Positions 11,719 to 59,800 of a stretch of 64,000 nucleotides of DNA are shown piece after piece (the first letter of the stretch is position 1; every line of letters starts with the position of its first letter). Location of the stretch: contig CAXGUD010000001.1 in the NCBI GenBank assembly GCA_964012805.1, forward strand, positions 1 to 64,000. The letters run 5' to 3'. The translations under genes and the position numbers were made by a program. Below the pieces are notes generated by a model. That model was not told the DNA's origin, did no database searches, and was given only the letters and a program-made list of their open reading frames with translations. This DNA comes from an uncultured Bacteriovoracaceae bacterium. GTDB taxonomy: Bacteria > Bdellovibrionota > Bacteriovoracia > Bacteriovoracales > Bacteriovoracaceae.

Positions 11719-12093
11719 TCAGAGAGAGTCCAAAAGCTCATAGAGTTCTTCGAGAATTAAAGGCTTTTGAAGAAAGAAACTTAAAGACAAAGAAGATGCC
11801 AAAGCTTTTACTTCTTTAATATTTCCTGAGATAAAGACAATGATAGTATTTTGATTCGGCCCATCAGAGTTCCTGATATCCACGGCCAAATTTGCACCTT
11901 TAATCACAGGCATCCTGTGGTCTAAAAAAATAACATCAAAAGCTTCATTATCAAGAAGATCTTTATATTGGTCTTTTTCACTAGCGATAGAAACTTCATA
12001 TGAAGATCTGAGTTCAAGACCTTGCTTAAGCATTTCAAGAATTTCTTCTTCGTCGTCAATAATAAGTATCTTTTTTTTGCCCATAAAACCCAC
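11719..12093 (-). CDS. Single-domain response regulator
   Basis: ILIIDDE, FLDHRMP (phosphoacceptor Asp), FISG, LQKP. Confidence 0.85.
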   Translation of the reverse strand: MGFMGKKKILIIDDEEEILEMLKQGLELRSSYEVSIASEKDQYKDLLDNEAFDVIFLDHRMPVIKGANLAVDIRNSDGPNQNTIIVFISGNIKEVKALASSLSLSFFLQKPLILEELYELLDSL

Positions 12094-12343: not shown

Positions 12344-13408
12344 TTGAAGGAAAATAAAAAAAAAATGCATAGAACAATTAAATCATTCACCCTTATTGTA
12401 TTTCTTATCCTGATCATACTACAAGACAGATCAAAAGCCGCATCTGAGAAGACCGCTTCCCCCGTTTATAATACTTTTGAATACTTGCTAGGAGAATTCA
12501 AAGCAGATATTGATGGTCTTGCAAAAAAAGTTAGTAATTCGATCCTTCTTAAAGTTTCAGTTGAAGGAGATATAGATAAAACCTTTAATAGGCATGTTAG
12601 GCGGTCTTTAGAGTCTTTTCGCATTAAAGGAAAAAAGTTTCGCTTCCGCCAATGTAAGGCCTGTACTTCTTTAAGGGCCGAAACGATAGGCAATCAAATA
12701 TACCTTAAAAAGGGAATTACAGAATTTAAGGATATTCAGGAAATCACTCAAAAACTTGGAACAATGTCTTACGCGGAAGCAAGTGTCGAGGATACCGGAA
12801 CAAGGCTCATTTTTAAGGTTTCTTTTTTTAGCTCGCTCAATGCAGAACTTCTTTGGAGTAAAACCTATCAAATGAGGCTCGTCAGCTTTGGTGACCTCAG
12901 TTTTACAGCAGCGCTTGAAGTTAAACAGGCCTTTGGAAGAAATAGCCCTCTTCTTTTTAATGCCTCTTTTGGTGAAAAAATCTATGGTATAGGCCTTATT
13001 GACCTCAATGTCACACTAGGCTTAGCATCAGGGAAAGATAACCCCGAGCAAAAAAAAGGTAGTAGTATCGTCCTTAACCCCAATGAAGATTATGTGAACA
13101 GTTACTTTGCTATAGGGCCAAGGTTAACAGTTAACATTAACGAATTTTTTCAAATGTATTCAAACTGGGGAAGTCAGTTTATCTATGCAGGAACCGGTTT
13201 TTGCCAATACACTCGATTGAAAACAAGCAACGATACAGAAGCACCTACTGGAAAATGGGGCCTTCATATTGAAGCGGGGTATGGAGTTCATCTGGGTAGA
13301 ACTTTTCTCATCACAGCAGGTTTAAACAAAGGTCTTTTTCTCAGTTCAGATGACAAAGATCAGGATTATCCTCTTCTCTTTAATATAGGATTTGGATTTA
13401 GGTTTTAA
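12344..13408 (+). CDS. Exported protein with periplasmic CxxC alpha/beta domain and C-terminal outer-membrane barrel
   Basis: Hydrophobic leader; CKAC; LIFKVSFF…ELLWSKTY (CsgG/TolB-N-like ending); beta-strands ending FNIGFGFRF; true start may be the ATG at 12365. Confidence 0.55.
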   Translation: MKENKKKMHRTIKSFTLIVFLILIILQDRSKAASEKTASPVYNTFEYLLGEFKADIDGLAKKVSNSILLKVSVEGDIDKTFNRHVRRSLESFRIKGKKFRFRQCKACTSLRAETIGNQIYLKKGITEFKDIQEITQKLGTMSYAEASVEDTGTRLIFKVSFFSSLNAELLWSKTYQMRLVSFGDLSFTAALEVKQAFGRNSPLLFNASFGEKIYGIGLIDLNVTLGLASGKDNPEQKKGSSIVLNPNEDYVNSYFAIGPRLTVNINEFFQMYSNWGSQFIYAGTGFCQYTRLKTSNDTEAPTGKWGLHIEAGYGVHLGRTFLITAGLNKGLFLSSDDKDQDYPLLFNIGFGFRF

Positions 13409-13427
13409 TTTAAGCAAGCATTTTTGA

Positions 13428-14123
13428 ATGAGTGTTATCCCCAAAAAGAGAAAAACCATGATGAAAAAATTATTAATTTCTTTTTTTATCCTTGGACCGT
13501 TAACTCAATTGAGTTTCTCTCAAACATCAATCAAAGAAAAAGACGGCTATATCATCATAAAAGAAGGAAAAAGCCGGGTTCAACTCAACCTTCCGGAAGA
13601 AATGAAAGGAGCTGATTCCTACATTATAAAGGTGAACAAACTTACAGACTCCAAATCTATTAACGCCGACATTTTAAACCGATCGAAAAACCTAGGTCTT
13701 TTTAAAAAAACAAAGGATGATCTTAAAAAAGGAGCCGTTAACGAAGCCCTTAAAATTGAATTAATCAAAAAAAGCAATGAAGGAACTTTGAGTAAAAAAG
13801 AATTAAAGCTTCTCAATGACTTAAAGGATCAAGAAAAAGATATTAACAAGAAAAAGAATTTAGATGTTATCACAAACCTTGCCATTGAGAGTTATCTTAA
13901 AAAGGCTAATGACGCCTACAATGCGAAAAATTATAAAAAGGCCCTTCATTACTCGGAAATGGCCGATCAATTAGACTCTAAAAATTATCGAATCAAGGCC
14001 ATGATAGGTTCACTTCACTACCGATTAGGAAATGACCAACTCGCCAAAAAGTATTGGACGGATTCGCTAAAGTTCAACCCCAACCAACCGAATATTAAGC
14101 TGTACATGAGAAAAATAAGGTAA
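13428..14123 (+). CDS. Exported TPR-domain protein
   Basis: Signal-like N-terminus; TPR helices ANDAYNAKNYKKALHY and GSLHYRLGNDQLAKKYW..SLKFNP. Confidence 0.75.
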   Translation: MSVIPKKRKTMMKKLLISFFILGPLTQLSFSQTSIKEKDGYIIIKEGKSRVQLNLPEEMKGADSYIIKVNKLTDSKSINADILNRSKNLGLFKKTKDDLKKGAVNEALKIELIKKSNEGTLSKKELKLLNDLKDQEKDINKKKNLDVITNLAIESYLKKANDAYNAKNYKKALHYSEMADQLDSKNYRIKAMIGSLHYRLGNDQLAKKYWTDSLKFNPNQPNIKLYMRKIR

Positions 14124-14198
14124 TTTTTTTAAAAGTGACAAACGTTTCAATCTTAAATGACTTACCTTTTAAGACTGTTCGTTTATGAAGAGATGTAA

Positions 14199-16007
14199 AT
14201 GAGGCTTAATTTAAAATTAAAATATTTATGGATCTTCTTAATTTTTCTTCTCTTCAGCGGGCCTAAAGGTGCTTTTACACAAGAAGCATCTCTTATGAGG
14301 AACCAACTTCAGCTCGAAAGTGAACTTAATTCACAAGTAAGAAAAGAGCTCCTCCAAGTTTTCAAAAAAGAGGAATTTATTATCTCTTCCTCTATAAAAT
14401 TAAAAAGTTACAGAGTTACAAAAGTTCTGGAACAAGAAAGCCAAATAAACAAACAACCTAAAAAAAAGGGAAGTGAGCAAGAAATACTGCCAGGTTTTTA
14501 CGATTCTGCCCCCTCAATAACAAACGAAATGGCCAATGAACAAGTAAGAAAAGTATATGGCCACGAAACAAAAACTGAATTAGAAAAGGCCCAATTGAAG
14601 ATTTTAGTCGATGAAAGCGTAACAGATACCAGGCTTGACGCAGCAAAAAAATTACTCACTCAAAGGTTAACAAATAGCTTTGGAGGAAAAATTGACATCC
14701 AATTCCTCCCAGCTGTCCTCAAATCAAAATTAGCACCAGTTCCTTTTTACCAAGAGTTTACTGGATACCTAAAGGATAATATGGGACTGCTTCTCCTGTT
14801 TTTTTGTTCACTTATCTTTCTTTTTGTCCTTGCTTCTTTAATCAACCGTATAAGGCCAAAAGATCAAATGCCTCCGGTTTGGTCATATAACCCACCTATG
14901 ACACCCCCAATAGATTCAATGGGAGGCTTTGGTGGCCCCCCTCCTCTTCCTGGAGGAGGTCAAAGACCTCATATAGAATTAGGCCCCAACACTCTTCCCC
15001 TACCAGGAAGTCATGAAAAAGAACTTGATGAATTAGAAATAGACAAAAAAATAAACAAATTTGTTAGCGTTATATGCAAAGAACCTTTTGTCACAAGAAA
15101 GTTTTTTCAGACCCTTGATAGAGATAATCAAAAAAGCTTTATGGCGCTTTTTACAAGTAAGAGTTCAAAAGTGGCGCTTGGAGAATTTTTTGGAGAAACA
15201 CTTTTAGGACCAGAAGCAGGCGATATTGCCAGTCTGGACAATGAGATGGACCTTGAGGAAAAAGCCGAATTTTTAGAGTTTATCTCTCTAGAACATGATA
15301 GATTTAAAAACCTTATGGCCATCAAAAATGGCCAGCGTTTTTCTATTTTATCTCTTATGAATGATAAGGAACTTCAATACGTCTTTTCGAATGAGTCCCC
15401 CAGAGATATTGCTTTTCTCCTTCACTTTCTTCCAAGAGACTCCATTTCTGGTGTTTTAAGCAGGATGGATAGCGAACAGAAAACTGAAATTATTTTAAAC
15501 TTGAAAAAGTCCTCTCAATTATCAGGAGAAGATGAAAGAGAAATTGAAGAAAGGCTTAATAAAAAAATTAATACTTTTGCCTCAAGCGCTTTTTCAACTT
15601 TCATGAGTGAAGACTCCTTAGTTGGAAGTATCTTAGATGAGTCCGATAATGCCCAAGAAATTTTAGATAGAATATCAAGTAAAGATAAAAACCTTGCTAA
15701 AAGCTTCAAATCCCACTCATTAAACTTTGATTATTTTATAGAAAATGAATTGGACTCTCTTGCAAGAATTTTTGAAACAATACCAAATGAAATGTTGGCC
15801 TTAAGCCTTATCGAATATGGTAAAGATGAAAGATCAACAATTTTAGAAGCACTTTCCCCCACAAGGAGAAAAGTCATCGCTTCTTCAATGCTCATGAACT
15901 CAAAAGCATCACACGAAGAAATAAGAAAAGCCAAATTAGAGTCATCTAAGATTGCTCGGAAAACCTATCAATTATTACAAAGAAATAAAATGGGTAAGGC
16001 ATCATGA
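14199..16007 (+). CDS. FliF-like ring domain + TM + FliG (middle and C-terminal) fusion protein
   Basis: Signal peptide; periplasmic LESELNSQVRKEL…ILPGF…LKILVD…IDIQF (FliF RBM3-like); TM GLLLLFFCSLIFLFVLA; Pro/Gly linker; FliG-M-like FSILSLMNDKEL…NESPRDIAFLLHFLP; FliG-C-like LNFDYF…LALSL…ALSPTRR…EEIRKA. Confidence 0.75.
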   Translation: MRLNLKLKYLWIFLIFLLFSGPKGAFTQEASLMRNQLQLESELNSQVRKELLQVFKKEEFIISSSIKLKSYRVTKVLEQESQINKQPKKKGSEQEILPGFYDSAPSITNEMANEQVRKVYGHETKTELEKAQLKILVDESVTDTRLDAAKKLLTQRLTNSFGGKIDIQFLPAVLKSKLAPVPFYQEFTGYLKDNMGLLLLFFCSLIFLFVLASLINRIRPKDQMPPVWSYNPPMTPPIDSMGGFGGPPPLPGGGQRPHIELGPNTLPLPGSHEKELDELEIDKKINKFVSVICKEPFVTRKFFQTLDRDNQKSFMALFTSKSSKVALGEFFGETLLGPEAGDIASLDNEMDLEEKAEFLEFISLEHDRFKNLMAIKNGQRFSILSLMNDKELQYVFSNESPRDIAFLLHFLPRDSISGVLSRMDSEQKTEIILNLKKSSQLSGEDEREIEERLNKKINTFASSAFSTFMSEDSLVGSILDESDNAQEILDRISSKDKNLAKSFKSHSLNFDYFIENELDSLARIFETIPNEMLALSLIEYGKDERSTILEALSPTRRKVIASSMLMNSKASHEEIRKAKLESSKIARKTYQLLQRNKMGKAS

Positions 16008-16061
16008 ATGAAGATAAGGAAAAAAATAGTTTTATAAAACCAAACAAAATAAAGGTCTAAA

Positions 16062-16811
16062 ATGCTAGCGAGATTACTACAACTCCCCTTCAGAATTTTG
16101 GGAATAGCCTTGATTTTGGCCGGGACCTATATTTGTGTTAAGTATGATGTGAAGCCTTCTTATTACGGTATTTACCATCCACCATCTCTTGCCCTTGTTG
16201 GTTTAGTTTTGGCCGGTGTGGCGATGTTCAGCTATAAAATTCAAACACTCTTTAGTATTTTCTTAGGTTGCTTAGGTGAATCACCCAGTTCATGCCGCTC
16301 CTATTTTCAAATCATGGAAAAAAAACTACCGGAACTTATTGACGTTTACTTTAGTGAAGGGCCCTCGGCACTAACCTCTCGCCTCCCTAACGGGTCAGAA
16401 AAAGAGCTTTGGCTTCAGGTCTTTACTAAGTTAGAAGCACAAATTTCACCAAGTGATTTGATTCAGGTTATGAATAAATATGCTTCTGACTATAAATCAA
16501 GAATCAATAGAGAAGTTTTAGTCGCCGGAACGGTAGGAAGTTTGGCCCCAACAATAGGTGTTTTAGGTACAGTTTTGGGCCTTATAAAACTTTTAGGGAA
16601 CCTTCAGGACTTTTCAAGCTTGGGTTCTAATATGGCCTTGGCACTGATAACAACTCTTTATGGAATTGTTTTCAATGCGCTTCTCATAACTCCCGTTGTA
16701 GGTCGGTTAGAGGAATATAGGACCTTTAGGCTTCAAATTTTTAGACAGATAATTTATTGGCTTGAATGCCTGGAACAAAAAAGAGCAGGCAGTGTTATAG
16801 AGCATAAATAG
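16062..16811 (+). CDS. motA: MotA/PomA-family stator subunit
   Basis: APTIGVLGTVLGLI.LL.NL.D.SSLG..MALALITTLYG..N….P TM3-TM4 signature. Confidence 0.9.
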   Translation: MLARLLQLPFRILGIALILAGTYICVKYDVKPSYYGIYHPPSLALVGLVLAGVAMFSYKIQTLFSIFLGCLGESPSSCRSYFQIMEKKLPELIDVYFSEGPSALTSRLPNGSEKELWLQVFTKLEAQISPSDLIQVMNKYASDYKSRINREVLVAGTVGSLAPTIGVLGTVLGLIKLLGNLQDFSSLGSNMALALITTLYGIVFNALLITPVVGRLEEYRTFRLQIFRQIIYWLECLEQKRAGSVIEHK

Positions 16812-16841
16812 TCTATAAAAAATAAGGAGTCACAACTCCAG

Positions 16842-17534
16842 ATGACCAAAAAACGTCATAAGGAAAAAGCTTCCTCTTTCGATGATGACCAAGAAAGCGG
16901 AGCTGAGAGCATTTCTAAATCTAGCTGGGCCGCATCCTATGGTGATGTTGTTAGTGTTCTTTTGTGTTTTTTTATCATCCTTTCAACAACAAGTAATATG
17001 AATTCAAAAAATGTTGAAAAAATGAAAGAGGCCATGAGTGATGAAACACCTCAAGGTAAAAAGAAAAAGCTCAAATCAAAAGACGTCATGAAAAAACTCA
17101 AAGAGATAATTAAAATAAAAAATCTTCAGAAGGATATCACTCTTGTAGAGGAACTTGACGGAACAAAGCTCATTATTAATGATCGTCTTCTTTTTTCTTC
17201 AGGAGGCGCAAAAATCATGCCTGAAAACATCGGAGAAATAAGAGAAATTATAAGAAGCTTTATCGACCTACCACCTCACTACCGGTTTAAAGTCGAAGGC
17301 CATACAGATGATGTTCCCATCAAAAGTAGAAAATTTCCTACAAATTGGCACCTCTCAGTTTCAAGGGCCCTTTCTCTTTTACAAGTTTTTCTTCAAGAAG
17401 GTATTTATGAAAAAAGACTAAGCTTCCATGGCTTTGCTTCATTCCAACCTCTTGCAAAAACTGAGGGGCTTCAGGGTGAAGACCTTAGAAAGGCCAGAAA
17501 AAAGAACAGAAGAGTTGTCATTAAGGTTTACTGA
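16842..17534 (+). CDS. motB: MotB/PomB-family stator subunit with OmpA-like peptidoglycan-binding domain
   Basis: W..SYGDVVSVLLCFF (essential Asp), LFSSGGA, VEGHTDDVP, NWHLS..RA, NRRVVI. Confidence 0.92.
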   Translation: MTKKRHKEKASSFDDDQESGAESISKSSWAASYGDVVSVLLCFFIILSTTSNMNSKNVEKMKEAMSDETPQGKKKKLKSKDVMKKLKEIIKIKNLQKDITLVEELDGTKLIINDRLLFSSGGAKIMPENIGEIREIIRSFIDLPPHYRFKVEGHTDDVPIKSRKFPTNWHLSVSRALSLLQVFLQEGIYEKRLSFHGFASFQPLAKTEGLQGEDLRKARKKNRRVVIKVY

Positions 17535-17587
17535 CTCAACAATCATCCATTAAAATAACTTATCAACAAAGAAGATGAATTTATTTT

Positions 17588-18676
17588 ATGAAAAAGAAAC
17601 ACCCATTTTTTTTGGGACTTTGTATTAAGGTCCTTCTTTTTACCATAATTTCTCCTTTCGGGGAAGCTGCAACGAACTTTTTTAAAATCACAAACATTAA
17701 TTCAGGGGGTGATCCACTTGTTAACGCTGCACTTTTGGAATTTGAATCCAATGTCAATCAAAATCTTCCTTCAATAGAAAGTACTGACCTGACAACAGAT
17801 ACAGTCAACTCCAATATCATCTCTAATAAGGGACTTGGAGTTGACTATACAAACTCCATGAAACGTTTTTTGGTAGGCTGGTCTCAAAGTGCTTCAGTTA
17901 ATGTCGGAAGCAGTGAAAATATCCTAAGTGGGGCCAAAACCGTAAAAGGTTTTGGAATGGCAACCCAATTTAACTTAGGGTTTAACCTTCAACCTTTAAA
18001 GAAACGTAAATTGATCAACCTACCTTCATTTTGGGGTCTCGACCTTAATAACTCAAAAATTTTTATGGGCCTAATGACCGGACGAACAAGCCAAAAAGTA
18101 AGTGGTTATACACTCGGCTTCGAAATTTTTACCGCCAACCTCCGTATTATGACGAAGCTCAAAAAAGCTGAAGACTTCAAAAGCTACTTTTTTAAGTGGG
18201 GTGGTATTGACTTAAGCACAGGGCTCGAAACTAATAAAACAGCCCTCTCAGTCAGTGTGCCAAGAAATGAGTCAATTACGGCTTCCAATTCATACAAAAC
18301 AACTTTTGACGGCATAGTTGGCTTTAAGGTCGATTCCTCAAGTTTTAGTATTCCTCTTGAAGTCTCAGCCAGTGCAACCTTCTTTTCTTTTATCGATTTG
18401 TTTTGGGGCCTTGGTACTGATTTAAACTTTGGGTATGGAAGGGGCTCGAGTTTTTCAGACTCTAATGTCTTGATCTTTGATAACTTAAATAACCAAGTTG
18501 GAACTGCTGACGCCGAGTTCAATGTAGGCTCAACAGGGTCCCCCTCAATCTTGAATGCTCGGTGGTTTGCTGGGACCCAAGTTAACCTATGGAAAATGAA
18601 AGTTTCACTTCAAGCACAACATTCTATGATCCACGGGATTTGGGGCTTTGGAGGTAATTTTAACTTCATTTTTTAA
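17588..18676 (+). CDS. Outer-membrane beta-barrel / surface protein (possibly Lsa36-like)
   Basis: Signal peptide; SNKGLGVDY; many amphipathic beta-strands; C-terminal GGNFNFIF. Confidence 0.55.
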   Translation: MKKKHPFFLGLCIKVLLFTIISPFGEAATNFFKITNINSGGDPLVNAALLEFESNVNQNLPSIESTDLTTDTVNSNIISNKGLGVDYTNSMKRFLVGWSQSASVNVGSSENILSGAKTVKGFGMATQFNLGFNLQPLKKRKLINLPSFWGLDLNNSKIFMGLMTGRTSQKVSGYTLGFEIFTANLRIMTKLKKAEDFKSYFFKWGGIDLSTGLETNKTALSVSVPRNESITASNSYKTTFDGIVGFKVDSSSFSIPLEVSASATFFSFIDLFWGLGTDLNFGYGRGSSFSDSNVLIFDNLNNQVGTADAEFNVGSTGSPSILNARWFAGTQVNLWKMKVSLQAQHSMIHGIWGFGGNFNFIF

Positions 18677-18693: not shown

Positions 18694-21288
18694 TTAGATA
18701 CTTGGAATAATTAAAGAAAAGGTTGTCCCCTCTCCTTCCTTCGTATCAATTTCGATTCTGCCGCCTAGACTTTCAATATTTTTAAGGACGACATCCATTC
18801 CCACTCCCCTACCGGATATCTCAGTTACATTACTCGCCGTCGAAAAGCCTGGTTTAAAAATGAGTTCTGTCTTTTCTTTTTCATTTAAAAAGTCTTTCGT
18901 GGAATCTATGAGACCTTTTTCTATGGCCTTATTATAAACATCTTCACCATTGATTCCCCGGCCATCATCTTTCAAAGTTAGAATAATATCAGGTCTTTTA
19001 CGGGTTAGACTAACTTCTATATTTCCACTTTTTTCAATTCCATGAGCTATACTATTATTGATAAGATGGATAACAGATTCCCTTATAATTTTTGCATTTT
19101 TTCTGTCAAAAAGGGCCTCTACTCCACTTACTTTAAAAGATACATTTTTTTCAAGTTTTCTTGCTTCTCTAAAAACTGTTGGCTTTAACTTCAACAATTC
19201 TCCTTTTAATTCACTCATCATGAGGTTTGCAAAAATTCTTAAAACGGCTTTTGCAGAAGTCATCTCTTTAGCTGAATGAAGAGCTACTTCAAATTTATTT
19301 TTTGGGACCTCGATAAACTCCTCAGACCCATCACTTTCAGAGGAAAGAAACTCTTCCCCAAAAACTTCTTGCGCGCTCTCTTTATAAAAAGTAAGGAGTT
19401 CCGTGAGCATTTCTTTAGTCCGTTCTATCCCATTTTTTTCATAATCAGTTTCAAATCCATGAACTTTATTACTTAATGACTCCAAATTAAAGAACCTTGA
19501 ACTTCCTTTAATTGTGTGCAGACTTCTTTTGACCCCTTCCTCATCACCCCACTCTTCCAATGTTTCAAAAACCTCTTTAATAAAAACTCTAAATTCACTT
19601 TTAGTATTGGAAACAATTTCCTGGAGGACTTGAATCCTGTATTCAGCTTTTTCCTGAGAAACTCTAACAGCTTCTTTTAACTTTTCCTCCTCAGTTATGT
19701 CCTCAATAATAAACATAATTCTTCTTACGATTTCTTGATCATCAATAATAGGACTTAATTGAATTTTTACAATCTTCTCATCTCCGTTTTCCATTTTTAA
19801 ATTAGTCATCTTGGGAATAACATCTTGCATACTATCAAATTGGAAAATATCCATGTTGATAGAAATACTAAAGACAAAGGCCATTTTTTCTCTAAATTCT
19901 TGATTAAAAAGCTCCGCACATACATTTTTCCCTACAATATCTACACCAAATATTTCCGCAGAGTATTTTGAGACAGGAAAAATTACTTTATAAGATTCAT
20001 CCACAGAAAAAACAGCTTGGCGCATATTATTCAATATATCTTTTGTCTCATTCAATGAGGAAAAGAGTTCATTTGTCCTTGCTTTAACTTTATTTTCCAA
20101 ACCCAAATTTGTTTTTTCAATTTTACGATAGAGCAATTTAAGTTTATGGTTAGCATCATTTAACTCTTCCGCCCTAATTGCGATGTCATCCCTTTGTAAT
20201 TTTATATACTCTGCAAAACCAAAGGACAGAACAATAAGCTTGAGAGAAGTACCTAATAAAAGAGAGTTATCAATGAAGAGGTAAGGTCCAAGAACTTTAA
20301 ATTTAAATAATATCTGGACAATAACAAACAGAACAAAAATATTAAGCGATATGAAAAAATATTTAGCAGTAACACTACCCTTCCTTAATTCATCGTAGGA
20401 AAACCAGAATGAAAAAATTATGATGGTTGAAAAATAAAAATAAGAAAAGCCTAGGCCGGCCGTAATGGGAGTAAAGAGGCAAACAAAGGTCAGGACGAGT
20501 CCTCCCTTTATAAAATTGTTGCAAAAGTGCAGTAGTTTTTCTCTATCCAGATTTATATAACTTTTTCCAAAAATCAATAAAGTGACGCCAGTTAGGGCAA
20601 CTAAGCTATTTTGGCCTTGACCAGATAACCAGGAACCTTTAAGAAAAGAAACAAATACCATAAGCGTTAATGATAAAACAAAGGCATAAAGAGAAAAAAG
20701 AATATAGTTAATATAATTGGAGGTTAAATAATTGAAAATATTATAAATTATTAATAAAATAATAACTCCATAAAAAAATGAATATAAAGTTTTTTCTTCA
20801 AATTGTTTTTCATAGAAAGAATCAATCTTTAAAATAGAGATGGGCAACTTTACTTTTTCTTTAAACCTATTACTTTTAAGAACTTGGATAAGCACTTCAC
20901 TTGTATTTGATTTAATTTTAAAACTAGGATGTCTATTTTTTAGCCTGAAAAGCATAGAATTATCAGGAGACCAAACCTCAGTTCCTCCTGAAGCTGACTT
21001 ATAGTAGAATTTAAAGTTCTGAAAATAGCTATTGTTTATAGTAATAACCTTTTCGAAAGGCCGCTTGGAAATTTTAACCTTTATGTATAGGTCTTTTTTA
21101 AAATCATTTAAGATATAGGAGTCTTCGATGGATTTAACTTTTTGAATATTATTTGGTTTAATAAGTCCTTTGACACCTTCTTCTAACGAACCCAAATATT
21201 GAAAAGCCTCGACTTCATATCCAGAACCAGAAAAACTATTTCCCATGAATAAAGAAATAAAAAATAGAAATGTTATTACTGTTCTCAA
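18694..21288 (-). CDS. 7TM-DISM sensor with PAS-like, Hpt and CheA-type HATPase domains
   Basis: Extracellular domain, about 7 TM helices, coiled coil LENKVKART.EL, Hpt SLHTIKG, HLINNSIAHG, DDGRG, GFST…SGRGVGMDVV; no CheW domain. Confidence 0.85.
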   Translation of the reverse strand: MRTVITFLFFISLFMGNSFSGSGYEVEAFQYLGSLEEGVKGLIKPNNIQKVKSIEDSYILNDFKKDLYIKVKISKRPFEKVITINNSYFQNFKFYYKSASGGTEVWSPDNSMLFRLKNRHPSFKIKSNTSEVLIQVLKSNRFKEKVKLPISILKIDSFYEKQFEEKTLYSFFYGVIILLIIYNIFNYLTSNYINYILFSLYAFVLSLTLMVFVSFLKGSWLSGQGQNSLVALTGVTLLIFGKSYINLDREKLLHFCNNFIKGGLVLTFVCLFTPITAGLGFSYFYFSTIIIFSFWFSYDELRKGSVTAKYFFISLNIFVLFVIVQILFKFKVLGPYLFIDNSLLLGTSLKLIVLSFGFAEYIKLQRDDIAIRAEELNDANHKLKLLYRKIEKTNLGLENKVKARTNELFSSLNETKDILNNMRQAVFSVDESYKVIFPVSKYSAEIFGVDIVGKNVCAELFNQEFREKMAFVFSISINMDIFQFDSMQDVIPKMTNLKMENGDEKIVKIQLSPIIDDQEIVRRIMFIIEDITEEEKLKEAVRVSQEKAEYRIQVLQEIVSNTKSEFRVFIKEVFETLEEWGDEEGVKRSLHTIKGSSRFFNLESLSNKVHGFETDYEKNGIERTKEMLTELLTFYKESAQEVFGEEFLSSESDGSEEFIEVPKNKFEVALHSAKEMTSAKAVLRIFANLMMSELKGELLKLKPTVFREARKLEKNVSFKVSGVEALFDRKNAKIIRESVIHLINNSIAHGIEKSGNIEVSLTRKRPDIILTLKDDGRGINGEDVYNKAIEKGLIDSTKDFLNEKEKTELIFKPGFSTASNVTEISGRGVGMDVVLKNIESLGGRIEIDTKEGEGTTFSLIIPSI

Positions 21289-57202: not shown

Positions 57203-57622
57203 TTAAGAAGGATAAAGACCACTTTTTACTAGAGTTTCTTTGACTTTTTTCTCTACTGTTTCCACCTCAAAAGGTTTTGCAATATAATTAGAAGCACCTT
57301 CCTTGAAGGCAAGACGAACCTGATCTTCAAAGACTTCACAAGTAATCATGATAAAAGGTAACTCTTGTATACCATCAATCCCAGAGCTTCTAATTTTTTT
57401 TAAAAGATCTAGGCCTGATTCCGGCATATTCCAATCACAAAGAAGAAGGCCATAGGGCTTCCCTACTAAATGGGCCTGCTCTACTTTTTCCCAACCATCA
57501 CCTCCGTTGTGACAAGTATCGATGTTGGATAGACCCATTCTAATTAGTATTTTTTTAACCAAAAGGCATATCGGCGGCATATCATCAATCATCAAAACCC
57601 TGATCTTATCATCAAAAACCAT
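57203..57622 (-). CDS. CheY-like single-domain response regulator
   Basis: LMIDD, LCDWNMP..GLDLL, FIMIT, ASNYIAKPF. Confidence 0.9.
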   Translation of the reverse strand: MVFDDKIRVLMIDDMPPICLLVKKILIRMGLSNIDTCHNGGDGWEKVEQAHLVGKPYGLLLCDWNMPESGLDLLKKIRSSGIDGIQELPFIMITCEVFEDQVRLAFKEGASNYIAKPFEVETVEKKVKETLVKSGLYPS

Positions 57623-57841
57623 TATTTATTCCTAGAAAAGTCAGTTCAAAAATCCAGCCCTATCCAATTATGCCATAAATCAGTCTTTTTTCTCCTAGCC
57701 TTCTAATAACTTCCACTAAAAACTTCTAACTTAAATAATCATTGTTGGATAAATACTTGAATTAAGGATTAATATCTCTTCAAAAATTTCCGATAATTGT
57801 TTGATATTATTGGTCATTACGGGGTCAAATTTAATAAAAAA

Positions 57842-59800
57842 ATGAAACAGTTTTTTAACTCAAAGCTTTTTTATTCTTTTTTTGCCTTAGCATTTCTTTT
57901 AACTTTGGCTTCGAAGCTTTACTCTTCAAGTTATGGAGGTCATTCATTCTCATCAATCAATTACTTAGAAGATCAAACCAGCTCTCTTGACGTTACAGAA
58001 GTTGTTAATAAAATAAACAGAGATCCATCCATTTTTAAAGCAACAAAAAACAAAAATAATTTTGGTTATTCAAAGTCAACCTTTTGGTTGAAAGCAACAT
58101 TGCACCCTAACTTAAAATCCAAAGACTCGCTTTTTCTTTCAGTTAACCCCCCTTTGCTTGATACAATAGAACTTTATTCGCTTGATGATAATCTCCAGAT
58201 CATTAAAAAAGTTATAACAGGAGACCTCCATCCTTTTAATCAAAGGGAAATCCCTTACCGAAGGTTTCTTTTCAAAATAACTCCGAAGAATACCAAATCC
58301 TTACTTATTAAATTAAAGTCGACAAGTTACATACCTATAAACCTCACCATTTTGGACCAAAAGGAGTTTATCAATAATGAAATCAGAGAGTCACTCCTCT
58401 TTGGTATTTTTATAGGTGTTTCTCTCCTTCTGATACTTATCCACCTCTCTATTTTCTTCTTTAGAAAGGAAATGGACTCTTTATATTATTCTGTTTTTAT
58501 TTTATGCTTTAATTTAATTACACTATCCACATCAGGCTTCGGCTTTCAAGTTTTATACCCAAACCTACCTGAGTTTAACCAGGCAGCGCACGTTTGGTTC
58601 GCTGCCTTAACAAACTTATCAATTGTTCCATTTCAAAATATGTTTTTCAGTGTTGATAGAACAGAAAAGTTTCACAAAATTAGAGAATTTTTCGTTATTT
58701 TGTGGGTTATACCTTTGGCCCTGACCTTTATCCAAAGATACGAAATGATGCGAATTATCAGTCAGATTCTCATTTTAAGCAATTTTACACTTTTCTGCCT
58801 CTTGATAAAAAAGTACTGGAAAATAAAAATAAAGGAATCAAGAATTTCATCTCTCGCATTCGGATGTCTCATAATAGGTGGAGTCTCGCAAATTTTATAT
58901 ATCCATGGAATAGCTCCTCAAAACTTTTTATTCTACAATAGTTATATTCTTGGCGGATTACTTCAAATGATTATTTTTTCTCTTGGACTTGCACTTAAAC
59001 TGAAAGAAGTGCAGGATGCAAGCTTAAAAAACAAATCACGTCTTATTGAGATCAATCAAAAAATTAACCAAGTCTTAAAACTTGAAGTTTCAAAGAAAGC
59101 TGAAGCGCTCGAAAAGAAAAACCAAAGACTTAAAGAATATGACTTTATTGTTGCACACGATTTAAAAAATCCTCTTGGGGCGATCCTTTCCTATACTGAG
59201 ATATTTGATTTGAAAGATACAGAAGACCCGGAAAAAACAAGAAGAATTATAAATAATATAAGAAGCATTGCTTTCAGGGCTATCGACTTGATTGATGGAC
59301 TTTTAAAAGTTGTTACTTCCGGTACTCTTGAGTTAAGAAAGCACTCTATCGAACTCTTAATTAAATGGGCAGCATCGCAGCTTACAACAAAAATAAATGA
59401 AACAAACGCAAAAATAAAACAGGACCTCGCTATTTTAAGTTTTTTTTGCGATGACGTTTCCATGGAACAAATATTTGCTAACATCATAGAAAATTCGATT
59501 AAATATAAAAGTCACGACAAAGAGCCAGAAATAATAATTAAATCATGGGAAGAGAATCAAAGAGTTTATATCTCTTTTAAAGACAATGGGATCGGCATCC
59601 CTGAACATATAAAATCAAATGTCTTTTCCAAGGACTTTAGAGGTGAAGACTTTAAAAACTCTAACATAGATGGGTATGGTTTAGGACTTTACCATGTAAA
59701 AAACCTTGTCAAAGAAAACAAAGGCGAAATTGAAATCACCGATACAAAAGAAAACCATGGGACAACTATAACTCTTTCCTTTTTAAAAGACCCATCATAG
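57842..59800 (+). CDS. 7TM-DISM sensor histidine kinase
   Basis: YLED…NFGYS..TFWL…TGD..PF.QR (DISMED2), 7 TM, AHDLKNPL, NIIENSIKY, DNGIG, GYGLGL; ATG at 57842 preferred over TTG at 57797. Confidence 0.9.
   Translation: MKQFFNSKLFYSFFALAFLLTLASKLYSSSYGGHSFSSINYLEDQTSSLDVTEVVNKINRDPSIFKATKNKNNFGYSKSTFWLKATLHPNLKSKDSLFLSVNPPLLDTIELYSLDDNLQIIKKVITGDLHPFNQREIPYRRFLFKITPKNTKSLLIKLKSTSYIPINLTILDQKEFINNEIRESLLFGIFIGVSLLLILIHLSIFFFRKEMDSLYYSVFILCFNLITLSTSGFGFQVLYPNLPEFNQAAHVWFAALTNLSIVPFQNMFFSVDRTEKFHKIREFFVILWVIPLALTFIQRYEMMRIISQILILSNFTLFCLLIKKYWKIKIKESRISSLAFGCLIIGGVSQILYIHGIAPQNFLFYNSYILGGLLQMIIFSLGLALKLKEVQDASLKNKSRLIEINQKINQVLKLEVSKKAEALEKKNQRLKEYDFIVAHDLKNPLGAILSYTEIFDLKDTEDPEKTRRIINNIRSIAFRAIDLIDGLLKVVTSGTLELRKHSIELLIKWAASQLTTKINETNAKIKQDLAILSFFCDDVSMEQIFANIIENSIKYKSHDKEPEIIIKSWEENQRVYISFKDNGIGIPEHIKSNVFSKDFRGEDFKNSNIDGYGLGLYHVKNLVKENKGEIEITDTKENHGTTITLSFLKDPS

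Follow-up and report, generated by a model that had tools for sequence, protein, structure and literature searches.

A six-gene operon in an uncultured Bacteriovoracaceae bacterium encodes a FliF-FliG-like fusion protein and its own MotAB stator in a reduced rotor-stator architecture

To our knowledge, the flagellum is so far the only machine in which FliG is known to receive torque, and the other 5:2 ion motors (Tol, Ton, Agl, Gld, and Zor) all act on a partner other than FliG. What, then, is encoded by an operon that places a FliG-like rotor protein next to a private MotAB pair? Such an operon lies in the first 64,000 nucleotides (forward strand) of contig CAXGUD010000001.1 from a marine, predatory, and uncultured Bacteriovoracaceae bacterium (assembly GCA_964012805.1), the whole of which we call the window. 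Six open reading frames (ORFs) on the + strand occupy positions 12344-18676 and are separated, in order, by 19, 75, 54, 30, and 53 bp, in exact agreement with the six co-oriented genes and the 19-75 bp gaps given by an earlier, sequence-only reading of this DNA. They encode an outer-membrane-type protein (OMP1), a secreted tetratricopeptide repeat (TPR) protein, a fusion of FliF-like and FliG-like parts (FUS), a MotA-type and a MotB-type stator subunit, and a second candidate outer-membrane protein (OMP2). We regard the operon as a flagellar rotor-stator pair in a new, reduced architecture, probably with a new role. Full-text searches of the literature found no description of the FUS family, and the operon apparently represents a real variant of the flagellar rotor-stator that has not been described so far. 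That it constitutes a self-contained module of flagellar-motor origin, with its genes away from the flagellar ones and with a ring turned by its own MotAB at its core, is a reading to which we give about even chances.

FUS (ORF3, 14199..16007, + strand) contains 602 amino acid residues in the order FliF(RBM3/collar)-TM-linker-FliG(M+C), where RBM is a ring-building motif and TM a transmembrane helix, and lacks RBM1, RBM2, and FliG_N. The FliF RBM3/β-collar-like domain lies in the periplasm and FliG_M and FliG_C lie in the cytoplasm, with one TM between them. The full-length protein was modeled by AlphaFold2 on 32 family members (mean predicted local distance difference test score, pLDDT, 78.9), and a separate model of residues 1-223 (pLDDT 79.3) was compared with structures in the PDB by Foldseek and, independently, by VIA-align against 48,161 chains. 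The N-terminus is a signal peptide, with classical AxA sites in relatives. It is followed by a helix (23-51), a strand (60-83), a disordered loop (84-113), a strand (114-138), a helix (143-161), and a strand (165-172), so that residues 25-175 (14271..14723, + strand) are predicted to fold as an α-β-β-α-β ring-building motif that includes a long hairpin and resembles FliF RBM3 together with the β-collar. The disordered loop at the hairpin tip carries L-P-G-F at residues 97-100 (14487..14498, + strand; pLDDT <50). The TM helix comprises residues 195-217 (14781..14849, + strand), the basic residues after it mark the cytoplasmic side, and a Pro/Gly-rich disordered linker extends over residues 219-274 (14853..15020, + strand; pLDDT <50).

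The predicted periplasmic fold is that of the FliF RBM3/β-collar. The top 18 Foldseek matches of this domain were all chains of FliF MS-rings or S-rings (3.4e-7 to 9.6e-3). The top three VIA-align matches were the RBM3/collar regions of Vibrio and Salmonella FliF, namely 8z5v_A (Z 11.7, 133 residues aligned, root-mean-square deviation, rmsd, 9.2 Å), 6scn_A (Z 10.6), and 8z4d (Z 10.1), with 132-135 aligned residues over FliF 230-452; the full-length model likewise aligned with FliF 228-437 at Z 10-11.5. These FliF RBM3 alignments cover 131-138 residues, and their Z scores exceed those of generic RBM-type folds, such as EscJ (8.9), SpoIIIAF (7.6), SpoIIIAH (7.3), and PrgK (7.0). At the level of sequence, a profile search of the PDB with the N-domain returned a faint FliF match only (6scn, E 3.2), and FUS has no Pfam match to YscJ_FliF (PF01514, RBM1-RBM2); its periplasmic part measures only ~170 residues. 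Among 32 diverse family members, the only near-invariant columns are E40, E80, P98, G99, F100, and R556, and G99 is invariant in the N-domain alignment (A3). The near-invariant residues cluster at two sites. A four-copy complex prediction of periplasmic residues 24-178 scored 0.16 and 0.15 against a mark of 0.42 and carries no weight either way.

The cytoplasmic part of the FUS model is all-helical over residues 278-601. Both FliG domains scored above their Pfam cut-offs in a hidden Markov model search of 14199..16007: FliG_M (PF14841) at 5.1e-11 and 43.1 bits (cut-off 25), and FliG_C (PF01706) at 6e-8 and 33.4 bits (cut-off 23.3); MgtE_N also matches above its cut-off (1.8e-7). The two domains occupy residues 379-598 (15333..15992, + strand). 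Aligned with 18 canonical FliG sequences by hhalign, the FUS family matches FliG 98-321 only, at a probability of 99.8 and an E-value of 2.6e-28. The structural comparison agrees, with FUS 379-598 superimposing on Salmonella FliG 103-320 (8wiw_3, VIA Z 12.3, 213 aligned), the FliG_M fold on 4fq0_C (Z 10.8, rmsd 1.9 Å over 79 residues), residues 509-594 on MotAB-bound FliG_C (8ucs_H, rmsd 1.9 Å over 86 residues), and the FliG_C domain on 1qc7_B (rmsd 2.0 Å over 87 residues). The helical region at residues 278-378 (15030..15332, + strand), where FliG_N would sit, has no detectable FliG_N match: the sole Pfam match to FliG_N in FUS lies on residues 401-496 at E 0.0081, below the cut-off, and the VIA alignments begin at model residue 377-388 and FliG residue 101-118. 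In place of the FliM-binding EHPQ motif (canonical consensus EHPQTIALIL), FUS reads E399-S-P-R, and the position is not conserved in the family. The NCBIfam FliG equivalog TIGR00207 scored 44.4 bits against a cut-off of 226.7 and was not reached. The fusion of FliF-like and FliG-like parts that the sequence-only reading had proposed is confirmed by both the periplasmic fold and the FliG match.

The two stator subunits follow FUS directly. ORF4 (16062..16811, + strand; 249 residues) matches Pfam MotA_ExbB (PF01618) at 2.6e-19 and 69.7 bits, and the NCBIfam models rank MotA/PomA/MotP (1e-15 to 1e-18; MotA 1.9e-18) far above TolQ (8.3e-7) and ExbB (1.7e-3). Its P163 and P211 align with E. coli P173 and P222, so both channel prolines are kept. 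ORF5 (16842..17534, + strand; 230 residues) has a TM helix with D35, a plug, and an OmpA-like peptidoglycan-binding domain, and matches MotB_plug (PF13677, 4.6e-11, 42.6 bits) and OmpA (PF00691, 3.3e-9, 37.4 bits); D35 stands in the column of E. coli MotB D32, which is Asp in all 15 MotB sequences aligned. Neither subunit reaches an equivalog cut-off: the best MotA model gave ORF4 66.4 bits against 340, and the best MotB-type model gave ORF5 121.7 bits against 283. Judged by these residues and domains, the pair has every feature of an ion-conducting, peptidoglycan-anchored, plug-gated stator, as expected from the dedicated MotAB that had been proposed beside FUS.

The residues by which MotA and FliG touch each other have changed. 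The known contacts are MotA R90 with FliG D288/D289 and MotA E98 with FliG R281 (PMC12505986). We verified the E. coli numbering on NC_000913.3 sequences, checked the FliG columns on the sequence of locus L072, and obtained concordant alignments of the torque helix from MAFFT and hhalign. Of the charged FliG ridge K264, R281, D288, D289, and R297, nothing is kept in FUS, which has I, T, S, S, and A, respectively. R556 and R557 of FUS occupy the columns equivalent to 282 and 283; the near-invariant R556 (codon 15864..15866, + strand) is located in the torque helix, one residue past the R281 column. ORF4 has F97 in the R90 column and T105 in the E98 column, so the FliG-contacting residues of MotA are not kept either. 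The fusion loci divide into group 1, consisting of the window and loci L052-L060, and group 2, which includes the more distant loci. In group 1, the R90 column of MotA holds Tyr or Phe in 10/10 sequences and the E98 column is acidic in 7/10, and the fusion has Arg at the 282-equivalent in 9/9 and an acidic residue at 288/289 in 1/9. In group 2, MotA has Arg in the R90 column in 4/4 and an acidic E98 column in 0/4, and the fusion is acidic at 289 in 6/6 and has Arg at 282 in 0/6. Each subgroup therefore seems to keep one of the two classical charge pairs, which is what a private FliG-MotA contact predicts.

The six-gene block goes beyond a chance arrangement, because a congener keeps the same gene order under strong constraint and the core is found again in other families of Bdellovibrionota. 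The congeneric locus L017 contains all six genes in the same order, with ratios of nonsynonymous to synonymous substitution (dN/dS) of 0.062, 0.083, 0.037, 0.013, 0.039, and 0.097 for ORF1 to ORF6; with dS at ~1-2, these values are approximate. Purifying selection acts on all six genes, and the MotA of ORF4 is 98% identical to its congeneric orthologue. Beyond the genus, we compared the window with 20 fetched loci from other genera (9 of group 1 and 11 of group 2). The genes for the fusion, MotA, and MotB are contiguous in all nine group-1 loci, where the stop codon of one gene mostly overlaps the start codon of the next; the MotA cluster and the MotB cluster each take in 16 of the 21 loci, window included. 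The synteny that the sequence-only reading had anticipated is thus present, as the full set in the congener and as a TPR-fusion-MotA-MotB core across families of Bdellovibrionota.

The nearest named record is a Halobacteriovoraceae metagenome-assembled genome (Bdellovibrionota), which has an orthologue at 87% identity and holds the one locus recovered when genome contigs were searched with close orthologues. A Leptospira origin of the DNA, at first suggested by several fliG paralogues, the 7TMR-DISM kinases, and the Lsa36 match, was rejected on this result. Near-identical DNA is present in marine metagenome runs from several studies, and a search of metagenome contigs with a four-sequence alignment recovered four loci, three of them <3 kb. 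A profile of close orthologues run by HMMER against 1.84 billion representatives retrieved 276 proteins at E <=1e-3. Among 155 family proteins, a subset of these, 111 are 480-730 residues long, and 105 of the 111 have a hydrophobic segment starting at residues 150-310; the FUS architecture is common to ~100 clusters at 50% identity. With the N-domain profile, the gene was detected in 54/251 sampled Bdellovibrionota genomes and 30/143 genera, mostly in ORFs of 560-695 residues, and within the window's own family in only 4/51 genomes besides this genus. The reach of the family outside Bdellovibrionota is indicated by ESM Atlas labels only, which we take as leads; they place FUS look-alike clusters in Balneolota, Pseudomonadota, Elusimicrobiota, Bacteroidota, and Thermodesulfobacteriota, and some of these clusters carry YscJ_FliF_C.

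Two conserved partners accompany this core, a TPR protein and a protein of the outer-membrane type. ORF2 (13428..14123, + strand; 231 residues) encodes a secreted protein with an N-terminal domain, a Lys-rich linker, and C-terminal TPR repeats (Pfam TPR_2, 2e-5). By clustering, a TPR family adjoins the fusion gene in 19/20 fetched loci, the TPR protein of the window being recognized by Pfam; Pfam TPR matches were found in 6/6 upstream neighbors scanned in group 1 and in several group-2 loci. OMP1 (ORF1, 12344..13408, + strand; 354 residues) has a signal peptide, a periplasmic domain of ~190 residues with a CxxC motif (C104 and C107), and a Gly-rich, β-barrel-like C-terminal part. It probably starts at ATG 12365 rather than at TTG 12344, as its ESM Atlas record begins at residue 8 and a GAAGGA lies 13 nt upstream of this ATG. 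The CxxC is invariant in 8/8 homologues, and a homologue is situated upstream of the TPR gene in 9/9 group-1 loci. The barrel matches are weak (PF13568 and PF13505, E 0.0017 and 0.0055, below cut-off), and a profile search of PDB sequences with OMP1 gave nothing meaningful. ESM Atlas labels, again as leads, describe an LpoB/CsgG-like N-terminal part and an OMP_b-brl C-terminal part and place look-alike clusters in Myxococcota, Balneolota, and Bdellovibrionota. OMP2 (ORF6, 17588..18676, + strand; 362 residues) is secreted and β-rich and ends in F; it has no Pfam match and reaches 5.5e-20 and 71.6 bits, below the cut-off of 90, with the NCBIfam model NF047512 of the Lsa36 surface (lipo)protein. 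Its counterpart occurs in the congeneric locus L017 only; BLAST against the 20 loci fetched outside the genus returned no match, and ORF6 may not be part of the conserved system. Of the two outer-membrane barrels proposed earlier as operon parts, the first stands as a group-1 component with a weak barrel call, and the second was found, besides the window, only in the congeneric locus.

Group-2 loci have other neighbors. Giant proteins with fn3 domains (694-2376 residues by clustering) lie beside the TPR and fusion genes in 6/11 of them, at L063:13-7143, L070:109-6909, and L061:10611-15101 and likewise in L062, L065, and L066; the three that were scanned with Pfam measure 1496, 2266, and 2376 residues. 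In L063, the giant gene is contiguous with the TPR and fusion genes on the same strand. These proteins are possible surface loads of the group-2 systems, and they recall the adhesins that are moved by the gliding motor. A β-rich protein of ~215 residues adjoins the fusion gene in seven group-2 loci; a relationship of this family to OMP1 was considered and rejected (hhalign probability 0.2).

How does the operon relate to the flagellum of the same bacterium? The window scan covered all 51 non-nested ORFs of at least 90 residues, namely the six of the operon and 45 others. No flagellar family was found among the 45, and no export-gate, rod, hook, FliM, or FliN gene among the 51, as the sequence-only reading had stated. 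No sigma-28-type promoter pattern lies upstream of the operon, the lone match elsewhere in the window being at chance level. Around the 20 fetched loci, no flagellar gene was found among the selected neighbors scanned with Pfam or the conserved neighbor families. The genome has a canonical FliG (345 residues, N+M+C) on contig C15 (82454-83491), where it adjoins a divergent dnaJ and not fliF, and a canonical MotAB on contig C8; it holds only two MotB_plug genes, the canonical one and ORF5. The flagellin set is unusually large, with nine matches to Flagellin_N, of which eight have E <1e-36. Neither PF01514 nor TIGR00206 nor tblastn with the congeneric FliF detected canonical fliF in this assembly. 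Both congeners have the gene, as do the fusion-carrying genomes G139 and G170, and it is recorded also for G001; in G139, fliF-fliG lies ~500 kb from the fusion locus. The flhA gene is split across two contig ends (C82:2-1357 and C16:1-666), so the assembly breaks at least one flagellar region. The missing fliF is probably an assembly gap, the alternative being a real rearrangement. Of the separate canonical genes that the sequence-only reading had named for a check of this genome, fliG and motAB were found and fliF was not.

Two FliG_C-only ORFs also occur in this genome (E 6.2e-24 and 1.2e-11). The first, of 142 residues, lies at C30:18750-19178 (L020:4751-5179) and adjoins a REC-PilZ protein; the second, of 141 residues, lies at C42:26418-26843 (L021:5419-5844) and adjoins a cNMP-binding protein. 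A comparable 141-residue FliG_C match is found in genome G007. These stand-alone ORFs could be soluble stator-binding regulators.

How might such a module work? We propose that the periplasmic domains of FUS would pack laterally into a ring in the manner of FliF RBM3, FliF itself forming rings of ~33-35 subunits, and that the FUS ring would array the FliG_C domains beneath the membrane. MotA5B2 units would push on the torque helix of FliG_C and the ring would turn; in this subgroup, Arg556/Arg557 and acidic residues of the MotA loop would replace the classical R90-D289 pair at the contact. The TPR protein could position the stators or bridge the collar and the outer-membrane protein, like the TPR scaffolds of complex flagellar motors, and the near-invariant PGF loop at the collar tip might hold a periplasmic or outer-membrane load. 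As export gate, rod, hook, and C-ring are all missing from the locus, the module would deliver motion or force within the envelope, to an outer-membrane or surface protein and not to a filament. Possible load candidates are, in this genome, ORF6 with its likeness to Lsa36 and, in group 2, the giant fn3 proteins. A more far-reaching form of this proposal, a free-standing, export-less rotary motor in which the FUS ring is spun by its own MotAB and, without involvement of the flagellum, passes the motion via the TPR protein to a protein of the outer membrane or the cell surface, is tentative, and we rate its chances at somewhat below even. The ESM Atlas leads, which put FUS look-alikes in phyla mostly without flagella (for example, Bacteroidota), are in keeping with it.

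Several points weigh against a self-contained module. Ring formation, rotation, and output are all steps that we infer. The rmsd between FUS and FliF RBM3 is high (~9-10 Å with the N-domain model and 6-8 Å with the full-length model), which weakens the structural match, although a high value is expected where a free hairpin is compared with a ring-packed hairpin. At the torque interface, the conserved Arg sits one residue off the R281 column, the MotA of the window itself has Thr in the E98 column where an acid would be needed, and the charge pattern of the two groups represents two clades, that is, at most two evolutionary events. The homologues of OMP1 outside the genus lack a terminal aromatic residue, and the barrel call is weak. 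With no FliF in the assembly, FUS may have a role in the flagellar basal body of this strain. The presence of the fusion also follows that of the flagellum: 52/54 fusion carriers have FlhA, and only 2/39 FlhA-negative genomes carry the fusion gene. Finally, the genus g90 has exactly three MotB_plug genes, one of which lies ~4 kb from a group-2 fusion gene, in a cluster with the order MotA-MotB-x-TPR-small barrel-320 aa-fusion (G170:C1:247538 and G145:C1:3411143; L067-L069), and the three motAB pairs of Bdellovibrio bacteriovorus are said in a review to power its one flagellum (PMC13689555); g90 may or may not be the genus Bdellovibrio. In the sequence-only reading, independence from the flagellum, the ring and its rotation, and a drive for gliding, transport, adhesin movement, or prey contact are the parts that stay hypothetical, and the fusion nature of FUS, the own plug-bearing MotAB, the synteny, and the separate fliG and motAB are the parts that held. 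None of the three conditions named there for its refutation applied.

The explanation that survives best beside the self-contained module is a flagellum-associated one, in which FUS and its MotAB are located at the flagellar pole and the TPR and outer-membrane proteins form a periplasmic scaffold like PflA/PflB, MotC/MotK, or FlcB. FUS could then provide an additional or alternative ring to the rotor, or dock a second stator type at the membrane for the sheathed flagellum. The co-occurrence with FlhA and the g90 cluster speak for this explanation, as do the three motAB pairs of B. bacteriovorus; moreover, TPR proteins are known as stator scaffolds in complex flagellar motors (PMC13023049), and the group-2 MotA, which keeps Arg in the R90 column, could still engage a canonical FliG. 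The association with FlhA is mild, however, because 212/251 (84%) of the sampled Bdellovibrionota genomes have FlhA anyway and related genomes are not independent. Genome G248 has an intact group-2 fusion gene with neither FlhA nor a Pfam FliG_C match. A second carrier, G126, has neither FlhA nor a canonical FliG match, and its fusion gene (G126:C22:44515-46306; L060) is cut by one TGA into ORFs of 141 and 413 residues, which may reflect a decaying copy or a sequencing error. The genetic setting also argues against a flagellar assignment, with no flagellar gene in the window or in the neighborhoods examined and ~500 kb between the fusion and fliFG in G139. In addition, the group-1 MotA has lost R90 throughout and the fusion torque helix has changed in step, which points to a private rotor-stator pair, and the FliM-binding EHPQ is not kept. 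We therefore consider a flagellum-associated module unlikely, with a chance of perhaps one in five.

A non-rotary transducer is less probable again, and we would give it only a small share of the likelihood. Here, one or a few copies of FUS would couple MotAB to the periplasm, as TolA and TonB couple TolQR and ExbBD, and no large ring would form; FliG_C would serve as a stator-binding handle only, and the load, engaged in outer-membrane tethering, transport, or remodelling, would consist of the periplasmic domain together with the TPR and outer-membrane proteins. The known 5:2 motors besides the flagellar one (Tol, Ton, Agl, and Gld) do act on few transducer copies, and an outer-membrane protein and a TPR protein in one operon recall the Tol-Pal/YbgF gene sets. 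Single RBM folds also occur in non-ring proteins, and the generic RBM/KH-like matches to FUS reach Z 7-9. The best matches, however, are the ring-forming FliF RBM3 domains complete with the collar hairpin, and these score above the generic folds over 131-138 aligned residues. The MotB plug and the OmpA domain, too, are features of stators that dock around a rotor (PMC12505986). That the operon is the functionless, decaying remnant of a second flagellar system, as the missing RBM1/2, FliG_N, and EHPQ, the altered canonical charges, and the interrupted G126 copy might suggest, is very improbable given the low dN/dS across all six genes, the intact reading frames of 560-695 residues in 50+ genomes, the fixed partner set that recurs across families, and the concentration of near-invariant residues at two sites.

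Several known systems resemble the operon in part. The flagellar FliF, FliG, and MotAB of E. coli, Salmonella, and Vibrio share with the operon the RBM3/β-collar fold, FliG_M and FliG_C with the torque helix, and the plug, OmpA anchor, channel Asp, and channel prolines of the stator. In contrast to the flagellar rotor, FUS is a single polypeptide instead of two, has a cleavable signal peptide where FliF has TM1, and lacks RBM1/RBM2, FliG_N, and a conserved EHPQ; FliG D288/D289 and MotA R90 are replaced, and the locus has no export gate, rod, hook, FliM, or FliN. The nearest described system is the FliF-FliG fusion of Chlamydiaceae, likewise a natural single chain with a FliF-type RBM periplasmic part, a TM, and a cytoplasmic FliG-like part, and likewise in a setting that lacks a full flagellum (PMC4768692). 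As far as the accessible text of that study describes it (Bergeron 2016), the chlamydial protein has ~330 residues, combines RBM2 and one more RBM with a FliG_M-like domain only, and has neither an RBM3/SpoIIIAG-like domain nor a MotAB partner. FUS, with 602 residues, RBM3/collar, both FliG_M and FliG_C, and its own adjacent MotAB, does not fit the description of that fusion. Engineered Salmonella and Vibrio FliF-FliG fusions, cited in the same text, indicate that a covalent chain still forms MS-rings, but these are man-made, join full-length FliF to full-length FliG, and act inside a complete flagellum.

The TPR scaffolds PflA/PflB, MotC, MotK, and FlcB, which surround the E-ring (PMC13023049), resemble ORF2, a periplasmic TPR protein that is encoded with a MotAB stator and presumably acts on it near a FliF-type collar. 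However, they serve filament-bearing motors, their likeness to ORF2 is drawn from the TPR repeats, and the operon has no FlgY/MotE-type gene. TolQR, ExbBD, AglRQS, GldLM, and ZorAB share with the operon an ion-driven inner-membrane motor coupled to periplasmic and outer-membrane partners, but these motors are not known to use a FliG-like partner or a MotB plug, both of which are present here, and ORF4 ranks with MotA/PomA and not with TolQ/ExbB. The accessible part of a survey of MotAB (PMC12505986) mentions no FliG-type partner outside flagella.

Of the flagellar machinery, the operon retains just the S-ring collar, the FliG torque domains, and a private MotAB; export gate, rod, C-ring, and filament are absent. 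Should it work alone, the rotor-stator core would be able to act as a module in its own right, and the operon would be a very small system for the study of ring assembly and torque generation, with a bearing on how the flagellar motor could have arisen out of simpler parts or been reduced to them. A free-standing motor would provide the first natural FliG-MotA torque interface outside the flagellum and would show how small a flagellar-type rotor can be. In the predatory Bdellovibrionota, the operon could be an unrecognized envelope machine with a role in prey contact or in movement over surfaces. That each of the two subgroups has lost the classical MotA-FliG charge pair which the other keeps amounts, in itself, to a natural experiment on the torque interface.

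Scans of the window for sigma-70 promoters and terminators returned matches at the level of shuffled sequence only. The operon is flanked by genes of signal-transduction proteins on the opposite strand. A stand-alone receiver-domain protein is encoded at 11719-12093 (- strand), divergent from the operon, and an 864-residue kinase with 7TMR-DISM, PAS, Hpt, and HATPase_c domains is encoded at 18694-21288 (- strand), convergent to it. Another 7TMR-DISM kinase, with a pair of receiver domains, lies at 57203-59800 of the window.

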